Shown piece by piece: positions 8,209 through 52,060 of a DNA stretch of 64,000 nucleotides. The DNA lies in assembly GCA_964612105.1 (NCBI GenBank), contig CAZTEU010000005.1, positions 45,039 through 109,038 on the forward strand. Direction: 5' to 3'. The position numbers and the translations under genes were made by a program. The notes below the pieces were generated by a model that saw nothing but the letters and a program-made list of their open reading frames with translations, made no database searches and was not told where the DNA came from. Source of the stretch: an uncultured Gammaproteobacteria bacterium (GTDB lineage: Bacteria; Patescibacteriota; Patescibacteriia; Magasanikbacterales; UBA922). The first letter of the stretch is position 1. Every line of letters begins with the position of its first letter.

Positions 8209-8559
8209 ATGGATAAATACACAGTATGGCATAATCCCAGATGTGGAAATAGCCGAGGAACAATAGAACTGTTAAAAGAAAGAGGTATAGAGCCAGATAT
8301 AAAACTATATTTGGAGAACGTCCCAAGTGAAGATGAGCTAAAAAATGTTGCTAGACTTCTTAATAAAAAACCTATTGAGTTTACTAGAACAAAAGAGAAA
8401 GCGTTTAAAGAAGCAAATCTGAGAAAAGATAGTAGTGATGAAGAAATAATTAAGGCAATGAAAAAATATCCAATACTTATACAAAGACCAATTGTAATAA
8501 AAGACAATAAAACAGCAGTAATAAGTAGACCGCCAGAAACCGTGCTAGATTTCATATAA
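8209..8559 (+). CDS. ArsC/Spx-family protein (arsenate reductase-like, thioredoxin fold)
   Basis: MDKYTVWHNPRCGNSRGT... N-terminal Cys in ArsC/YffB-like context. Confidence 0.75.
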   Translation: MDKYTVWHNPRCGNSRGTIELLKERGIEPDIKLYLENVPSEDELKNVARLLNKKPIEFTRTKEKAFKEANLRKDSSDEEIIKAMKKYPILIQRPIVIKDNKTAVISRPPETVLDFI

Positions 8560-8560
8560 C

Positions 8561-8590
8561 AAAAAAAGCGCTATGCGCTTTTTTTAATAC
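8561..8590. terminator. rho-independent terminator (AAAAAAAGCGCTATGCGCTTTTTTT)
   Basis: Stem AAGCGC/GCGCTT with flanking A/T runs. Confidence 0.75.
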
Positions 8591-8679
8591 TAGACAAAAA
8601 GGTATGGGAGCGAACGAATCTTGTTTCTACGCCCCCTCAACCCCGCCCCAGATGGGACTAGTGTGGGACGGCGAGGCTA

Positions 8680-8916
8680 CTAACCCCTACTCGTGGTGTT
8701 GCTGTTCCAGACGAGGTCGAAGACCAGCGCCAGGAATAGGCTCATCGTGCAGATGCAGAACAGCACGATGCCGGTGTCGAACATCATGTGCTCGAAACCG
8801 TTCAGCCTGATACCATTGCAGCTGATGGCTGCACTTCGGTACATCGCGGATGCACCACCCACGATGAACAGAACTATGCAACCGATGAAGCAAGAACCAA
8901 ACAGCTTCCAGAACAT
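8680..8916 (-). CDS. small membrane protein (78 aa), island A gene 1
   Basis: Two hydrophobic helices; AAGGAGGGGAAA immediately upstream of ATG (rc of 8917-8932). Confidence 0.6.
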   Translation of the reverse strand: MFWKLFGSCFIGCIVLFIVGGASAMYRSAAISCNGIRLNGFEHMMFDTGIVLFCICTMSLFLALVFDLVWNSNTTSRG

Positions 8917-8990
8917 TTTCCCCTCCTTGAGGAATAGGTAACCTTACGGTCACCAGCGATAAGTACGTTCGCTCAACCTTTCTATCTAGT

Positions 8991-9040
8991 ATAGATTGTA
9001 AAGAGTTTTTGTTTTACCAAACAAAGAAGTGACGGGAGTG
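8991..9040 (+). repeat. intergenic repeat copy 1 (TTGTAAAGAGTTTTTGTTTT ... AAGAAGTGACGGGAGTGAA)
   Basis: Near-identical 20-mer plus related purine-rich 19-mer also at 9576-9628; third inverted partial copy at 9955-9975. Confidence 0.7.
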
Positions 9041-9084
9041 AATTGGATTCAGACTCGCCACCTCGCAGGCTCCTTCTCCTGCGA

Positions 9085-9498
9085 TCAGCGACGGCCCGTG
9101 TGTTGCTCGTCTGCGATCGTCGCCACCCCGGCGAACAGGATAGCGACACTGATGAGCCCAAGGATGGCCCACACCGTCGCCTCTGGATTCAGCACCATCT
9201 GGGCGCTGAATATTCCGCCGTACATGACGGCGGTGAAAACCATCCCAGCGAAGCTCGCCAACCAGACGAACATCCCCGTAACCAGGATTACCATCCCATC
9301 CCAGCGGGAGAAGGTCGACAGGTTGCAGATGCAACCCAAACCAGCCGCCACGAAGATGAAGGCGCCGATCAACAGCGCCAATGTCGCGAACTCGAGGAGG
9401 AACGGCAGGGTGAACACCCAGCCGAACACCTTCATGGCCACGCCCATGATGGTCGCGACTAGAGCCAAACTGACCGTCGGGATATCAAAGAAACGCAT
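9085..9498 (-). CDS. polytopic small membrane protein (137 aa), island A gene 2
   Basis: Four hydrophobic segments; CAAGGAGGAGAAAATG upstream. Confidence 0.6.
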   Translation of the reverse strand: MRFFDIPTVSLALVATIMGVAMKVFGWVFTLPFLLEFATLALLIGAFIFVAAGLGCICNLSTFSRWDGMVILVTGMFVWLASFAGMVFTAVMYGGIFSAQMVLNPEATVWAILGLISVAILFAGVATIADEQHTGRR

Positions 9499-9575
9499 TT
9501 TCTCCTCCTTGCTCGTCTACTGACGAGCTGTAGGCGTTTCGTCCAAAATTCACTCCACTTCTTTATTTGGTATAA

Positions 9576-9628
9576 GTTGTAAAGAGTTTTTGTTTTTCTA
9601 CTAAACAAGAAAGCGAGGAGGTGAACAT
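9576..9628 (+). repeat. intergenic repeat copy 2 (TTGTAAAGAGTTTTTGTTTTT ... AGAAAGCGAGGAGGTGAA)
   Basis: See copy 1. Confidence 0.7.
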
Positions 9629-9683
9629 AGTACGTTACAACCCCTCGCTGGAAACTGCTCCACAGGAAAAGGGTTGAAAGATC

Positions 9684-9920
9684 TCACTCGACGTCGTTGC
9701 ACACCGAGCGCACGGGCTCCTCATCGCTGTACCAGCCGAGGGGGGCTGCATAAACGACGAGGCCACCGATGCTCCCGAGGGAGGCCAGGGACAGACCCAG
9801 AATGGCCGTCTCCACCCGCCCCGCATCAGGGACGAGGAACAGGCCGGTGGCGAAGAGCCCCAGACCCACGAGGAGGAGGATGAAGAAACAGTGGGAATCA
9901 CGATCACGGCGACTACGCAT
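9684..9920 (-). CDS. small membrane protein (78 aa), island A gene 3
   Basis: Two hydrophobic helices; GGAG 8 nt upstream of ATG; TG-extended -10 promoter at 10027-10040. Confidence 0.5.
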   Translation of the reverse strand: MRSRRDRDSHCFFILLLVGLGLFATGLFLVPDAGRVETAILGLSLASLGSIGGLVVYAAPLGWYSDEEPVRSVCNDVE

Positions 9921-9954
9921 GGCAAACTCCAGCCTAGGTTACTTGAACGACGAT

Positions 9955-9975
9955 GTGTCGGACTTGTTCACCTCG
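9955..9975 (-). repeat. inverted partial repeat copy 3 (rc: AAGAAAGCGAGGTGAACA)
   Basis: Reverse complement matches purine-rich half of copy 2; lies about 40 nt upstream of island A gene 3. Confidence 0.6.
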
Positions 9976-10026
9976 CTTTCTTACTTAGTATATTTTAAGG
10001 TACTACTATCCTATTTTACCAACACA

Positions 10027-10040
10027 GTATTATAGCACAA
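10027..10040 (-). promoter_or_regulatory. TG-extended -10 promoter (TTGTGCTATAAT) pointing into island A
   Basis: Identical 13-mer to 2700-2713 and 38317-38330. Confidence 0.5.
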
Positions 10041-10042
10041 AA

Positions 10043-10070
10043 AACCCCTTTTGTCAAGGGGTTTTTATGG
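10043..10070. terminator. bidirectional terminator AAAAACCCCTTTTGTCAAGGGGTTTTT
   Basis: 10-bp perfect stem, loop TTGTC; related hairpin at 21637-21665. Confidence 0.8.
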
Positions 10071-10102
10071 TTTTTTGGCTTATTTTAGCTAAATTGTATA
10101 CT

Positions 10103-11485
10103 TTACTGTTTCTCAATAATACCCCTTATCTCCCCTATCCTACCACTCAAATCCTCTTTCTTCCATGTTTCCAGATTTAGGCGTAAAACAGGCTCAGTAT
10201 TACTCTTTCTTACATTAAACCATCCCCAGTTAAATTCCATCCATACACCATCTATATTATTACTAGAAATAGCCTCATTTTTGTATATTTCTCTTATTTT
10301 TTCCATCATTCCATCTTTATCCTCCACCTCAAAATTAATCTCTCCTGAGTGATAATATTTCTTTAATGGAGTTATAATCTCACTAAGAGATTTGCCTGCC
10401 TGCGAAATAAGCCTAAGTATGTACAAAAGTGATAGTTCTGTACATTCAATCTTGTACATTTCATCAAAATATAGGTGCAGAGAAAGCTCGGAGCCAAACA
10501 CTCCATTTTCCTCACTCATTATTTTTTTAATGTAAGTATGCCCAACCTGTGTCATTATAGTTTTTGCTCCTGCAGACTCATATGACTCTTTAACAATCCT
10601 ACTGGAACGAAGATCATACAGCATTGTTGCACCTGGATTATTTTTTAGCACTTCCAAACCAATAATTGTAGCAACAAAAGATGCATCCACCACTTCCCCC
10701 TTCTCATTAACAACACCTATCCTATCCGCATCTCCATCCAAAGCAAAACCAAAATCTGCACCAACCTCTATAACCTTTGCTTGTAAGTCTTTTAATGTTT
10801 CTGTCTTTAATGGATTAGCCTCATGGTTTGGAAAAGTGCCGTCCGGCTCTATATACATGTACTCAACATTCACTTGAGATAATTTTTCCAATAATCTTGG
10901 AAATGTTACTCCTCCCATTCCATTTGCAGAATCTATAACTATTTTTAATGGTTTAATATCTTCCGGCTTTACCAATTCTAGAATTCTCTCCTGGTACAGC
11001 GGAAACATATCTTTCTCTTCCACATTTCCTTTTTCTTCTTTTACTTCACCAAAATCATTTTTTATTACAGCATCACGAATCTCTTCCATACCGTTTACTT
11101 TACCAACAGCTAATCCATTCCCAAGAGCTAATTTAAAACCATTATATTCTGCCGGATTATGACTAGCTGTAACAATTACCCCCCCAGCATGCTCTTCTAA
11201 ATGAGCGCAGGAGAAATTAAAAAGTGGAGTTGTACTTTGTCCTATGTTTACAACATCCACACCCTCATCTGTAATACCTTTTATTACAGCTTCACTAAAA
11301 GGTTTACTGGTTGGTCTCATGTCCAACCCAACTACCATTTTTTTTGCAGAAAAATCCTCACCTTTATTTTTTAGGAAGTTTACATATGCACGCCCAAGTC
11401 TGTACGCCAAATCCTCACTAAGCTCACTATCTGCAAGCCCGCGAATATCGTATGACTTAAAGACATGTTCTGGAATATCTACCAT
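10103..11485 (-). CDS. phosphoglucomutase/phosphomannomutase family protein (alpha-D-phosphohexomutase)
   Basis: VTASHNPAEYNGFK active-site Ser motif, Mg-binding DGDADR; start probably at MVDIPEHVFKSYDIRG (ORF track start 11542 is upstream). Confidence 0.85.
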   Translation of the reverse strand: MVDIPEHVFKSYDIRGLADSELSEDLAYRLGRAYVNFLKNKGEDFSAKKMVVGLDMRPTSKPFSEAVIKGITDEGVDVVNIGQSTTPLFNFSCAHLEEHAGGVIVTASHNPAEYNGFKLALGNGLAVGKVNGMEEIRDAVIKNDFGEVKEEKGNVEEKDMFPLYQERILELVKPEDIKPLKIVIDSANGMGGVTFPRLLEKLSQVNVEYMYIEPDGTFPNHEANPLKTETLKDLQAKVIEVGADFGFALDGDADRIGVVNEKGEVVDASFVATIIGLEVLKNNPGATMLYDLRSSRIVKESYESAGAKTIMTQVGHTYIKKIMSEENGVFGSELSLHLYFDEMYKIECTELSLLYILRLISQAGKSLSEIITPLKKYYHSGEINFEVEDKDGMMEKIREIYKNEAISSNNIDGVWMEFNWGWFNVRKSNTEPVLRLNLETWKKEDLSGRIGEIRGIIEKQ

Positions 11486-11590
11486 ATAATTTTGTTGAAA
11501 AATAAGCGGATTTAGTATATAGTACGAGTATCTCATACGCAAGTTTCAGAGAGTTTTTATGTACAAAATCTATAAATAAGATATAGGATT

Positions 11591-21244: not shown

Positions 21245-21610
21245 ATTGACCGCCGACCCGCCCGAACCACTCAGAAGCAAGCTTCTTTGTGATCCGGACA
21301 GGTCAGACGTGTGAGACTGGTTGAGAACTACACCATACCAACGTGGGCATTGGAGATTCCGATGGAACCCCTGATGATCTGGCCAGACGCTGTGAGGTTG
21401 TAGTTGGAACAGGCACGAACATACCCGCGGTAATTCTCACGGTCATCTTCCGTGCGATTACCGCTCAGAATCCACCTCGCGTAGTCCTGAGGGATTCTGT
21501 GCTCAACACGGAGCCTGGCAACAATCTGTCGCCCCTGTGAAAATTCGCTCTGATGGACACTCATGCTCTCTTTCCTCCTGTTTAGGGGTATTTACCCCTA
21601 AGAAATTGAA
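21245..21610. other. GC-rich micro-island B
   Basis: 60-nt sample 21251-21310 counts 36/60 G+C versus 20/60 in adjacent recG 3' end; flanked by hairpins CCACCTTGTGGGTGG and AGGGGTATTTACCCCT. Confidence 0.7.
21328..21564 (-). CDS. hypothetical 78-aa protein, island B
   Basis: CAGGAGGAAAGAGAGCATG upstream; no recognised domain. Confidence 0.5.
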   Translation of the reverse strand: MSVHQSEFSQGRQIVARLRVEHRIPQDYARWILSGNRTEDDRENYRGYVRACSNYNLTASGQIIRGSIGISNAHVGMV

Positions 21611-21636: not shown

Positions 21637-21665
21637 TCCCTTTTGTCAAGGGATACTTTTTATTC
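21637..21665. terminator. terminator hairpin ATCCCTTTTGTCAAGGGAT + T-run
   Basis: Shares CCCTTTTGTCAAGGG core with 10043-10070. Confidence 0.7.
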
Positions 21666-23726: not shown

Positions 23727-23794
23727 ACTGAGTTATTGTACGGGATTTTTGTAATAAAAACAAAAAAACACCATTTTGGGTGTTTCTGGTCCGC

Positions 23795-24100
23795 TGGCTC
23801 GACCACTACTCCGTAGAGTGTGGCCAAGCCAGAGGACATGTTCTACCTCTCCTTCTGTGAACGTACAAACCGTCGTCGTGCTTTCGCAACGATTTCGGAA
23901 ATACGCATGAGTTCCTTGAGTCGACTGAGATCAACCCTGTTCGCTTGCCTTTTCGGTGTTTCAACCTTACCCAGGTATGAAACACCTGGACGATCAAAAC
24001 GAGTCTCTCCGTATGGTCCCCCCATGACTGGCCTCCTGATTGTGCTTCGTTTCTATGGGTTTTTATATCACTGTAGGACATGTCTGTCAATTTAAAAACA
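23795..24100. other. GC-rich micro-island C
   Basis: G+C-rich segment between two AAAAACACC...GGTGTTTT hairpins. Confidence 0.65.
23843..24025 (-). CDS. hypothetical highly basic 60-aa protein, island C
   Basis: AGGAGG 6 nt upstream of ATG; overlapping antisense ORFs lack RBS. Confidence 0.45.
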   Translation of the reverse strand: MGGPYGETRFDRPGVSYLGKVETPKRQANRVDLSRLKELMRISEIVAKARRRFVRSQKER

Positions 24101-33869: not shown

Positions 33870-35060
33870 CACCCTGCCCAGCGTTTCTTGCTGAGCAGGG
33901 TGTGCCTCCTTTTTTGGTAAGGTCATGAGAGACCGAGTGTCCGAGGAACCAAGTTCCACTACCCGAGAGCCAAGGAACCTAGCATCCTAGGGCTGACGCT
34001 TGCTACGGACGAGAAAACGAGAGCGGTCACCCCAGCCGCCGTCAAACCAGCGGAGATAAGTTAAGAGGTGCTGACCGTTGCCGTCGCTCCAGACACACGG
34101 GCAGCCCCGGTCACCGTTCAGGTCCTGCCAGACGCTTCCGAGCGCGACCAGTGGCCATTCCAGACCGACTTCTTGATGTTCGGCGCAGTATACGAGCAAA
34201 TCGCGCAACGAGGCGACCTCGTAGCCTTGTTTCTTGATCTCATCCAGCACTGCTGTGGTGTGCAAACGCTTGTTGAAATGCAAAACCTCGAGACTGTACT
34301 CGTAGTCAGGCTGGTCATCCGGAAGGGGGAAATTCTCGGTAGTGATGTTATATTCGACGTAACCGAACCCACATGCCCCAATGAGCTGTTGTAATTCATC
34401 CGGAGAGGTCTCTTCATCAGAAACGGTCTTCTTACGACGGACCAGGAAACGGTAGTAGTTGATCCACCTGCTCTCAAGCCAGTCGAAATCCAGACGCCGA
34501 CCGTTTCTATCACGCCAGACAAACGGACAACACTGGCCACCGTGCACATTCTGCCAAGTACTCCCGAGTGCGGACAATGGCCAGTCCAGGCCGACTTTGG
34601 AATGTTCGGCGCAGTATACGAGCAAATCGCGCAACGAGGCGACCTCGTAGCCCTGCTTCTTGATCTCATCCAGCACTTCCGTGGTGGTCAGACCCTTGTT
34701 GAGGTGCAGAACCTCGAGACTGTACTCGTAGTCAGGCTGGTCATCCTCGAGCGGGAATTTCTCGCCCATGATGTTATCATCCACTGAGTGGAACTTGCAT
34801 GCTCCAATGAGCTGTTGCAGTTCGTCCGAGATAGGCACTTCGACCAGCTTGTCGAACCGCCCTTCCACAATCGCTTGGAGCGCTTTTTTGACCAGAGCTG
34901 GGTCGTACGGGCACCCCCTCTTCTGCCGAAGCAACCTCTTGATCTCGTGGAGCTGACCATCAATCTCGAAATACAGATCGCCTGCAACGCTAAACGCCAT
35001 GACAATCTCCTCTTTTCTAAGCTACAAATGCCAACGCACTCGCGCCAACACTCTTGCCTG
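33870..35060. other. GC-rich micro-island D
   Basis: Sharp compositional shift; single long minus-strand ORF with RBS, multiple overlapping antisense ORFs typical of high-GC DNA. Confidence 0.7.
33987..35000 (-). CDS. hypothetical 337-aa protein built from two tandem ~150-aa repeats (unrecognised domain), island D
   Basis: AAGAGGAGA upstream of ATG; internal repeat SDELQQLIGAC.F...DDQPDYEYSLEVLH.NK..TT.VLDEIKKQGYEVASLRDLLVYCAEH..VGL.WPL.ALGS.WQ....G..CP.VW.D.NG present twice. Confidence 0.6.
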   Translation of the reverse strand: MAFSVAGDLYFEIDGQLHEIKRLLRQKRGCPYDPALVKKALQAIVEGRFDKLVEVPISDELQQLIGACKFHSVDDNIMGEKFPLEDDQPDYEYSLEVLHLNKGLTTTEVLDEIKKQGYEVASLRDLLVYCAEHSKVGLDWPLSALGSTWQNVHGGQCCPFVWRDRNGRRLDFDWLESRWINYYRFLVRRKKTVSDEETSPDELQQLIGACGFGYVEYNITTENFPLPDDQPDYEYSLEVLHFNKRLHTTAVLDEIKKQGYEVASLRDLLVYCAEHQEVGLEWPLVALGSVWQDLNGDRGCPCVWSDGNGQHLLTYLRWFDGGWGDRSRFLVRSKRQP

Positions 35061-43231: not shown

Positions 43232-43436
43232 ATTTTTGGCTTAGTTGAGCTAAATTTCTATTGTAATTATATCATAATTCTGCTTGTAATATCAAGGAAT
43301 AGTCAAGTTGACAGGCATACTTTTTTGTGCAACAATGAAAAAACCAGCGTCGTTATGGCGGGGTCATCCCAATGCGGGATTAGGGTGTCTTCTTCTTCCA
43401 CACCAACAAAGGAAGATTTTTCAAGGAGGTGTCGTT

Positions 43437-43799
43437 ATGGCATCTAGACAGTATGAGTTTTTGGACAAGACCGGAGAGACTTGGTACCACATCGTAGAAG
43501 GTATGTGTCCCGGCATTTGGGACCTGATTATCAACTCACTTGTGCGCGGTAACCAGTGCACTGTGATAATCTACACCCAAAGCCAAGCCTCTGGACAAAG
43601 ACTGGGCATCGAGCTGACACACCTGAAGAGTGTCACCAACCTCACGTCGTACGTCGACAAAGAGTGCGAAGAGTGGGCACTCGTTGCAACAACCCCGTGG
43701 AACTGGGTAACCGTGCGGTTCAACACCAAGACGCGACATGGACGCCTCCGGTTCCTGACGAAAGAGGAAGAGAGGGTGTGCACCACGCTCATGGAGTAG
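43437..43799 (+). CDS. hypothetical 120-aa protein, island E (start at MASRQYEF after AAGGAGG)
   Basis: CAAGGAGGTGTCGTTATG; ORF track's longer 43308 start lacks RBS. Confidence 0.5.
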   Translation: MASRQYEFLDKTGETWYHIVEGMCPGIWDLIINSLVRGNQCTVIIYTQSQASGQRLGIELTHLKSVTNLTSYVDKECEEWALVATTPWNWVTVRFNTKTRHGRLRFLTKEEERVCTTLME

Positions 43800-43821
43800 A
43801 GGTAACCCCACACAGACGACA

Positions 43822-43862
43822 AGACCCCCGTTCCTGCAAGGTTCGGGGGTCAATTCTTTTTT
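43822..43862. terminator. terminator GACCCCCGTTCCTGCAAGGTTCGGGGGTC + TTTTTT
   Basis: 8-bp GC stem. Confidence 0.75.
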
Positions 43863-51489: not shown

Positions 51490-52060
51490 TAGCAAAACAA
51501 AAAAACACCATATTAGTGTTCTTTTGAATTGGGCCGAGATTTTGTATAGGTACTCGGCCGTTTAACCTATGTTGTCGTACTCCCCTTACTCGGTAGGCAT
51601 CTCGACATCGCTGACGTCGACACCTAGAGCCAAGGCGCATACTTGGTAGTCCGCGACGCGATTCTGGTAGATCGACCCTCCAACGCATCGCACGAAGCGC
51701 GTAACGAAGTCCTTGAACCCGTGGTCCAGGTCCATGGCAGTACAGATGATGTGAGATGCCGCATACCTGAAGTCTTCGTCGACCATACCATACATGAAGT
51801 TCTGCAGGGCACTCTCGCAGAGTCCACCACACAGTGAGTCAGCCAGAGGGATGTCCTTCCAGGCGATGTAGGTACGGTTATTGTAGCCACGTTCCTCGTG
51901 AAAGAGTGTTTCATATGAGACCCCCTTCTCTTGAATCGCCGCTTTATTGAGGAGCCAAACCTTCAGACACTTGCTGACCTGGGCTTGCAGATACTGATTC
52001 ATTTCCATCTCCTTGTAAAGAGCCTCTATTTTGTCCTCCACCACGCCTTTTTGTGATTTC
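51490..52060. other. GC-rich micro-island F
   Basis: Compositional shift bounded by hairpins (AACACCATATTAGTGTT, GGCCGAG...CTCGGCC). Confidence 0.65.
51586..52002 (-). CDS. hypothetical 138-aa Cys-containing protein, island F (start at MNQYLQ after AAGGAG)
   Basis: CAAGGAGATGGAAATG; ORF track GTG start further upstream lacks RBS. Confidence 0.5.
   Translation of the reverse strand: MNQYLQAQVSKCLKVWLLNKAAIQEKGVSYETLFHEERGYNNRTYIAWKDIPLADSLCGGLCESALQNFMYGMVDEDFRYAASHIICTAMDLDHGFKDFVTRFVRCVGGSIYQNRVADYQVCALALGVDVSDVEMPTE

Follow-up and report, generated by a model that had tools for sequence, protein, structure and literature searches.

What is the function of a short repeated element in the gene spacers of Island A? 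Island A is a GC-rich stretch (~8561-10066, 52-57% GC) of a 64-kb window; the window is the whole stretch of 64,000 nucleotides (nt) of contig CAZTEU010000005.1 that was analyzed. An earlier sequence-only reading of the element, an AT-rich repeat followed by a purine-rich block, offered internal promoters, RNA processing or stability sites, and a small mobile cassette's ends or repeat units. In this study, the element was found to belong to a larger arrangement: each of three minus-strand genes, g1, g2, and g3, is bracketed by its own complementary arm pair, with one open reading frame (ORF) per pair. The arms, their cognate specificity, covariation, a strand bias, and the operon signals were established by sequence and computation. 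We propose that the brackets close a tricistronic mRNA cistron by cistron and act as RNase III-type processing or stability sites, a reading to which we give about an even chance of being correct.

The repeat itself was confirmed. At three or fewer mismatches, the window contains only two matches to the 20-mer TTGTAAAGAGTTTTTGTTTT, both exact (8996-9015 and 9577-9596), where shuffled sequences lead one to expect 0.09. The similarity reaches leftward to 48 nt at 81% identity (8968-9015 versus 9549-9596), and a second direct repeat of 16 nt (94%) lies over the ribosome-binding sites at 8914-8929 and 9496-9511. The purine blocks reported to follow the repeat were located at 9023-9042 (AAAGAAGTGACGGGAGTGAA) and 9608-9626 (AAGAAAGCGAGGAGGTGAA), and the inverted repeat at 9015-9045 and 9545-9575 was recovered in a repeat search. 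A third, inverted partial copy exists as the reverse complement of AAGAAAGCGAGGTGAACA, at 9965-9982 and not at 9955-9975, a displacement of 7-10 nt. What the first reading had missed is that the genes lie on the minus strand, that each arm has its cognate partner across one ORF, and that a third arm pair surrounds g1 (8587-8616 with 8966-8992). With the genes grouped into units U1 to U3, the repeat does not stand on its own as a direct repeat: it consists of the linker and the 3' arm that belongs to U2 or U3. The inverted partial copy corresponds to the 5' arm of U3, and the adjacent inverted repeat to that of U2. Because of the minus-strand orientation of the genes, the purine block represents the complement of a pyrimidine-rich 3' arm of the mRNA. 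The block had been likened to a Shine-Dalgarno (SD) sequence lacking a suitably placed start codon. No usable plus-strand start codon does follow it, but the SD-like reading is wrong because the block sits on the non-coding strand. A plus-strand mini-ORF after the block was rejected; its sole candidate in-frame GTG abuts the SD-like run with zero spacing.

The arms, linkers, and genes are listed below in descending order of position (aa, amino acids; GC3, GC content at third codon positions).

9965-9990, minus strand: 5' arm of U3; outer strand 9990-9975, inner strand 9974-9965.
9684-9920, minus strand: g3, 78 aa, 2 predicted transmembrane segments, GC3 0.77, SD GGAG 6 nt before ATG.
9599-9627, minus strand: 3' arm of U3; outer strand 9614-9599, 3-nt bulge 9617-9615, inner strand 9627-9618; includes CACCUCCUC; read on the plus strand, it is the purine block of repeat copy B.
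9573-9598, minus strand: linker between U3 and U2, with the 20-mer at 9577-9596; the mRNA reads GAAAAACAAAAACUCUUUACAACUUA; predicted to be single-stranded.
9548-9572, minus strand: 5' arm of U2; outer strand 9572-9557, inner strand 9556-9548.
9085-9498, minus strand: g2, 137 aa, ~4 predicted transmembrane segments, strong SD AAGGAGGAG, GC3 0.81, an ORFan.
9015-9043, minus strand: 3' arm of U2; outer strand 9030-9015, 4-nt bulge 9034-9031, inner strand 9043-9035; the purine block of repeat copy A.
8993-9014, minus strand: linker between U2 and U1, with the 20-mer at 8996-9015, whose last base (9015) belongs to the outermost pair of the U2 3' arm.
8966-8992, minus strand: 5' arm of U1; outer strand 8992-8976, unpaired U at 8975, inner strand 8974-8966.
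8680-8916, minus strand: g1, 78 aa, 2 predicted transmembrane segments, strong SD AAGGAGGGG, GC3 0.77.
8587-8616, minus strand: 3' arm of U1; outer strand 8603-8587, 4-nt bulge 8607-8604, inner strand 8616-8608.

The three helices follow a common plan, with an A/U-rich outer part of 16-17 base pairs (bp), a C-rich bulge of 3-4 nt on the 3' strand, and an inner part of 9-10 bp. The strand and position of the bulge are identical in all three units; the sequence of the bulge and the inner helix have diverged. Conservation between units is restricted to the arms and the linker and does not extend to the ORFs or the inner untranslated regions (UTRs). The A-rich linker, 20-26 nt long, is conserved and predicted to be unstructured. 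CU-rich, anti-SD-like runs (CACCUCCUC, CACUCCC, and GCUCCC) lie in the 3' arms and SD-like runs in the 5' arms. The real SDs, which are strong at g1 and g2 (CAAGGAGGNGAAAATG), lie 35-50 nt inside the helices; the arms pair with decoy SD-like runs upstream and not with the real SDs.

Covariation is one line of evidence for RNA pairing. In an alignment of the three units over 26 pairs, 98.7% of the cells were paired, and both sides had changed at 10/26 positions. This combination of pairing and double changes was matched by none of 500 shuffles (0/500). Slid controls, in which the partners were moved by 1-3 columns, gave 40-51% pairing and 0-1 double changes. As judged from these three paralogous copies, the pairing appears to have been selectively maintained through compensatory changes. 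All five non-Watson-Crick cells were G.U or U.G on the minus strand and none was A.C; one U.G is invariant across the units. In keeping with this bias, the helices lose 3-8 kcal/mol of stability when read as plus-strand RNA.

Folding and duplex energies pointed in the same direction. Minimum free energy and centroid folds of the 1463-nt minus-strand transcript gave three closed domains with one arm pair each, joined by unpaired linkers, with the terminator hairpin last. Cognate arms formed duplexes of -36.8 to -38.6 kcal/mol, versus -15.2 to -23.4 kcal/mol for the six non-cognate combinations. Duplexes with shuffled partners had a mean of -12 to -14 kcal/mol, a standard deviation of ~3, and a minimum of -26, and hairpins formed across the linkers by neighboring non-cognate arms reached -12 to -15 kcal/mol at most. 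A genome-wide duplex-energy statistic was uninformative because GC-rich coding sequence scores lower energies than the AT-rich arms; it was dropped in favor of composition-matched shuffles, the cognate versus non-cognate comparison, and pair counts. Among the explanations offered earlier, RNA processing or stability sites is the one favored by these unit-specific, covarying, long-range helices on the mRNA strand.

The signals expected of an operon frame the three units. Three features were assigned at the ends of the island.

10057-10029, minus strand: the sole island promoter, with -35 box TTGACA at 10057-10052, a 17-nt spacer, and -10 box TATAAT at 10034-10029.
10014-10027, minus strand: a putative 3'-arm-like remnant at the predicted 5' end of the transcript; on the plus strand it reads TTTTACCAACACAG, similar to TTTTACCAAACAAAG in the 3' arm of U2.
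8561-8585, both strands: a bidirectional intrinsic terminator, A7GCGC-TAT-GCGCT7, common to the neighboring arsC-family gene (plus strand) and the island operon (minus strand).

The promoter matches the consensus at 12/12 positions, and a TG precedes its -10 box. The terminator is the final hairpin of the predicted transcript fold; it was omitted by a rule-based scan because its T run falls within the stem. On the coding strand of the spacers, the same kind of scan found nothing resembling a promoter or a terminator. The -35 box lies inside the loop/stem of a hairpin at 10040-10066, which looks like it doubles as the terminator of the upstream phosphomannomutase gene. A second hairpin with an embedded -35 TTGACA was seen at another island promoter (21637-21657); it has the 15-mer CCCTTTTGTCAAGGG in common with the first, and both resemble terminators of neighboring genes, giving a compact terminator/promoter composite. 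A weak plus-strand site at 9967-9994 (TTCACC-16-TATATT, 9/12) overlaps the U3 5' arm and is directed at hairpin 10040-10066. It could yield a short RNA antisense to the operon leader, and is probably a chance occurrence.

The three ORFs have the properties of genes. GC3 is 0.77-0.81 in g1-g3 versus 0.43-0.47 at second codon positions; this period-3 signal speaks for coding sequence. Their products are hydrophobic (grand average of hydropathy 0.53-1.30), and no mutual relatedness was detectable among the g1, g2, and g3 proteins. A search for homologs of g2 among 5.8e9 clusters and 1.84e9 representatives returned just itself and a 99% variant. Eight island ORFs, g3 among them, gave nothing above noise in Pfam, PHROGs, NCBIfam, and PADLOC, and viral scans with g3 and a 337-aa ORF from another island were negative. 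The SD of g1 is predicted to pair locally with an upstream UUCCUC with a probability of ~0.99, and that of g2 is partly sequestered.

Taken as a whole, the proposed mechanism would run as follows. Island A would be transcribed as a single minus-strand unit from the promoter at 10057-10029 to the terminator at 8585-8561. A long-range helix of ~26 bp would enclose each cistron together with its 5' UTR, SD, and 3' UTR; since the helices close each cistron, the tricistronic mRNA would consist of three closed domains strung on single-stranded linkers. The helices would be long enough for cleavage by RNase III or another double-strand-specific RNase, and/or an endonuclease could cut the A-rich linker AAAACAAAAACUCUUUACAA, after which the helices would shield both ends of each cistron. 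Either way, the outcome would be three separately stable, mutually insulated mRNAs. The brackets are proposed as processing and/or stability elements because a double-strand-specific RNase could plausibly act on helices 25-27 bp long, which have precedents.

The closest precedents are single genes. In Staphylococcus aureus, pairing of the icaR 5' UTR with its 3' UTR makes a substrate for RNase III (PMC3868564), and in Bacillus subtilis a 14-bp A/U-rich 5'/3' duplex of hbs restrains cleavage by RNase Y (PMC5737220). Island A shares with both the pairing of 5'- and 3'-UTR segments of one coding unit across the whole ORF, with icaR the C/U-rich 3' segment and SD-like 5' segment, and with hbs the A/U-rich duplex. 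It differs from both in having three serial closures in one operon, a repeated module, and a conserved linker. The hbs duplex has 14 bp at -19 kcal/mol, whereas those of Island A have 25-27 bp at -32 to -39 kcal/mol. Also unlike icaR and hbs, the real SD lies outside the duplex in Island A, and the helices are predicted from sequence. A second precedent is the rRNA precursor, in which stems flanking 16S and 23S rRNA are cut by RNase III (PMC6582327). There, too, long flanking helices loop a segment out of a polycistronic precursor with spacers between the units (PMC6582327). The helices of Island A reach the length of at least ~20 bp that marks an rRNA-type stem flanking an excised segment, with 16-17 plus 9-10 bp coaxial across the bulge. 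The enclosed segments differ in being protein-coding cistrons of 350-520 nt, for which cleavage is predicted. Phage T7 provides intercistronic RNase III sites. Hairpins derived from repeats of the Neisseria Correia element can also be RNase III substrates (PMC2649163). Helices of ~25 bp with an asymmetric internal bulge between the cistrons of a polycistronic RNA are common to these systems and Island A; theirs are local hairpins of 50-150 nt, in contrast to the gene-enclosing helices described here, and Correia elements are dispersed in hundreds of copies, in contrast to a single locus.

The distribution of the bracket was compared with this role. Brackets were absent from five single-gene GC-rich islands of the window, two islands in the flanks, the prs gene, and the ~18 kb of flanking sequence; the bracket-like pairs seen at other islands and prs were just terminator look-alikes or matches of 72-79%. 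A role in resolving polycistronic RNA fits because the bracket is confined to the multi-gene island. At the gathering threshold, Rfam matched only two tRNAs, both elsewhere in the window, and an E-value scan of 8500-10150 gave sub-threshold matches on terminators only. A bulge-helix-bulge motif, retron a1/a2 sequences, and attC were ruled out on anatomy.

Several points weigh against the proposed closure and processing of the mRNA. The three units are paralogous copies at one locus, so they offer few independent covariation events. The strand bias is merely suggestive, with ~3 independent events, because the invariant U.G was probably inherited. There is no orthologous locus for comparison, because the population is clonal and g2 is an ORFan. 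No ERLEFLGD-type RNase III signature was found in the 64-kb window. Such inverted repeats might just as well be sites that act at the DNA level: a TA dinucleotide bounds each arm pair on both sides, as do the target duplications of IS630/Tc1-type elements. Finally, co-transcription, helix formation in vivo, cleavage, and stabilization are what we infer from the arms and operon signals.

The likeliest of the alternatives, though one that we regard as unlikely, is a translational lock like that of type I toxins such as hok and aapA, in which a 5'-3' interaction keeps the mRNA of a potentially toxic small membrane protein stable and translationally inert until a nuclease trims the 3' arm. Tandem loci and long-distance 5'-3' interactions are recognized features of type I systems (PMC8594479, PMC6733600). 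Island A resembles hok/Sok and aapA/IsoA in its small hydrophobic ORFs enclosed by pairing of mRNA ends, CU-rich anti-SD-like elements, local SD-sequestering hairpins, and loci that are often tandem (PMC6733600, PMC8594479). Its products are small and very hydrophobic with 2-4 predicted transmembrane segments, anti-SD-like CU runs in the 3' arms face SD-like runs in the 5' arms, and the SD of g1 is locally sequestered, that of g2 partially. However, lengths of 78-137 aa exceed those of typical toxins (usually under 60 aa), and the long-range helices omit the real SDs, which pair only partly, via local hairpins. No antisense promoter was found in or near the units, where the best plus-strand site scores 9/12 and points outward, and no Rfam toxin or antitoxin family matched. 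Island A differs from hok/Sok and aapA/IsoA in having no detectable antisense RNA gene, one promoter common to three genes in place of one each, and the SD outside the helix.

Rather unlikely, in our view, is an explanation at the level of DNA, in which the arms are terminal inverted repeats of three transposase-less cassettes (mobile insertion cassettes or MITE-like elements carrying a passenger ORF) or recombination sites of gene cassettes that can invert or be exchanged, and the RNA pairing is a by-product. The TA boundaries noted above favor it, as do three unrelated ORFs exactly flanked by inverted repeats with conserved flanks, the insertion of Island A relative to a distant relative, and the foreign-looking GC3 of the island ORFs. 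Inverted repeats are known to flank cassettes that carry passengers (PMC4337579), and Correia repeats can be RNase III substrates as well (PMC2649163). A likeness to integrons or mobile cassettes is also seen in the unrelated, promoterless ORFan genes in the same orientation behind one promoter, their non-host composition, and the related, imperfectly palindromic repeats between them. Unlike in integrons, however, no integrase or transposase was seen among the ten ORFs scanned within ~15 kb, the spacers lack a GTTRRRY/RYYYAAC core, the complementarity spans the ORF and not the spacer (spacer hairpins of -12 to -15 kcal/mol), and there are three units only, invariant among assemblies.

Searches for further copies and for mobility argue against the DNA-level explanation. 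No other copies of the linker 20-mer or the arm core were found in the window or its ~18 kb flanks, and no element with matching ends was seen in the window. In 596 Gb of genomes, a metagenome set, and IMG/VR, the exact 20-mer matched 36 contigs (13 genome, 4 viral, and 19 metagenome), all with a single copy, from unrelated organisms, and with dissimilar flanks; the contigs of the host itself are evidently absent from these sets. Dispersed repeats, such as miniature inverted-repeat transposable elements, repetitive extragenic palindromes, or Correia-like elements, were rejected as the 20-mer has only two copies in the window and its ~18 kb of flanks, both in Island A. No recombinase or transposase was detected among ten ORFs scanned within ~15 kb, four of which had no Pfam match; the matched neighbors include radA, recG, lytR, der, and dsbA-like genes. 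The collection of related contigs, in which arsC was indexed in 33 blocks, yielded 17 distinct contigs from many samples. All 17/17 were collinear with the window and 99.8-100% identical to it, with at most two single-base island differences each. No inversion, loss, or gain at the arms was seen in these 17 consensus contigs, a comparison that does not cover read-level minority orientations. An invertible DNA segment was rejected, as the consensus assemblies have one orientation only and no recombinase was seen nearby.

The only single-base differences of the island among the 17 contigs are at 8999, 9182, 9460, and 9524. Position 8999 is in the linker 20-mer (one contig); 9182 (non-synonymous) and 9460 (synonymous) are both in g2; and the change at 9524, which breaks a pair of the U2 5'-UTR hairpin, is in a possibly chimeric contig. 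Separately, a 1.1-kb contig (L023:1-256 joined at window position 10190) exits the 3' end of the phosphomannomutase gene into unrelated, very AT-rich DNA, and several other contigs stop at 10095-10146, just beyond the island promoter. The junction may reflect strain variation, a repeated sequence, or a chimeric assembly.

The arms themselves also speak against a DNA-level explanation. At 10/26 positions the units differ and yet stay complementary, which is unexpected from one shared transposase; the mismatches are all G.U on the mRNA strand; and TA is itself palindromic and lies within the helix. The mobile cassette proposed earlier gained no positive support, given that no further copies, recombinase, or rearranged assemblies were found, although the three units may have had a cassette-like origin. 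Because TA flanks the arm pairs and the unrelated ORFs within conserved flanks look cassette-like, the units may still have a DNA-level origin.

We consider it improbable that the arms are a fossil of local duplication, that is, a spacer-plus-gene unit duplicated in tandem whose arms were inherited without present function. The element is restricted to one locus, in each of two repeat families the copies are 581-582 nt apart from start to start, which suggests unit-wise duplication, and a possible arm remnant lies at 10014-10027. Against this, the flanks are 81-94% identical while the enclosed ORFs are not detectably homologous, the opposite of neutral decay. Furthermore, ten double substitutions are compensatory and virtually no pair is broken, which requires either selection on pairing or a copying mechanism. 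The sequence-only reading had reserved the verdict of mere local duplication for a motif absent elsewhere and without covariation; the motif was indeed found nowhere else, but covariation is present among the three units.

Quite improbable, as we see it, is that the arms and linker serve a CPR-type bacterium (candidate phyla radiation) as a standard frame for capturing and expressing cassettes, in which unrelated GC-rich ORFs, foreign or de novo, would be inserted between matched arms through recombination or an RNA-mediated process and then be expressed as self-closing mRNA capsules. If true, such a platform would be integron-like without an integron integrase or attC, and a possible source of the GC-rich ORFan islands.

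Internal or antisense promoters, with TTGTAA of the 20-mer as a -35 box for plus-strand RNAs or TTTACA/TATAC serving each gene, are highly improbable: although the spacers have AT-rich partial hexamers, TTGTAA matches TTGACA at 4/6 positions, and TATACT starts each 5' arm, a scan of both spacers on both strands found no promoter-like site, the hexamers score 4/6 plus 3/6 at best, the -10 candidates at 16-18 nt spacing score 1-3/6 with the final T missing, TTTACA and TATAC are only 3-4 nt apart, host promoters are near-perfect TTGACA-17-TATAAT, and the coding strand has a single promoter-like site, the 12/12 consensus at 10057-10029, outside the spacers.

Island A lies among host genes of different composition. 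The overall GC content of the window is ~36%, and housekeeping genes are present. The left neighbors of the island are pheT, pheS, rseP, and the arsC-family gene (8209-8559, plus strand); to the right are the phosphomannomutase gene (10103-11542, minus strand) and then clpC, so that the island fills the interval between arsC and the phosphomannomutase gene. The nearest arsC relative, 62% identical, is without the island, and there arsC directly abuts a convergent phosphomannomutase-family gene. Island A is therefore considered an insertion, since the relative has zero DNA between the two genes. The promoters of host and tRNA genes are of a near-perfect TTGACA-17-TATAAT type. At the right end, genes for ribosomal proteins form an operon in which S5 is followed by L15, with no L30 gene called between them. 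A LAGLIDADG gene splits an rRNA-gene-like stretch of ~50% GC (L049:300-2700), and dnaE carries an intein containing a LAGLIDADG domain (L060:5126-9895). LAGLIDADG genes and the lack of a called L30 are typical of bacteria of the candidate phyla radiation (CPR); a CPR/Patescibacteria-type host is compatible with these features, though unproven.

Other GC-rich islands (49-59%) were seen in the window at 21250-21600, 23790-24050, 33900-35020, 43340-43830, and 51540-52010, in addition to Island A at 8600-9990, and beyond it at L049:4200-4600, L049:5400-6000, and L060:1300-2900. They occupy intergenic gaps among housekeeping genes, each with a TTGACA-17-TATAAT promoter and a strong SD. The GC3 of island ORFs is 0.62-0.81 (one 0.43) versus 0.20-0.28 in host genes, and the ORFs are mostly ORFans. 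The 337-aa island ORF (33987-35000, minus strand) is an internal tandem duplication of a ~150-aa domain. A 174-aa ORF (L049:5367-5891, plus strand) in another GC-rich island, ~5 kb past the window's right end, shows 40-42% identity to each of its repeats; because it matches both, the island genes include a paralogous family. The prs gene (phosphoribosyl pyrophosphate synthetase; L060:4082-5044) is embedded in sequence whose GC content reaches 58%. A gene of known function is thus present in at least one GC-rich segment, and horizontal transfer from a GC-rich donor is suggested. The linker's first 10 nt, TTGTAAAGAG (mRNA CUCUUUACAA), recur at 52013-52022 (plus strand) in the island listed at 51540-52010, directly before the SD of its gene. 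About 0.1 chance matches are expected in the window, and this recurrence may be a coincidence.

If the helices work as inferred, this bacterium resolves an operon into individually closed mRNAs by means of a repeated modular RNA device. A processing stem of the rRNA-precursor type would then be applied to protein-coding cistrons. Interactions between 5' and 3' UTRs have so far been known only from single genes, for example icaR and hbs; Island A would have three in tandem. If the proposal is true, the brackets would be a natural equivalent of synthetic "insulator" parts, and the succession of arm, bulge, arm, and linker would offer a sequence-defined handle on mRNA processing in an uncultivated, probably CPR-type lineage. 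GC-rich ORFan islands behind host-type promoters also raise the question of how genes are acquired and domesticated in a reduced genome.

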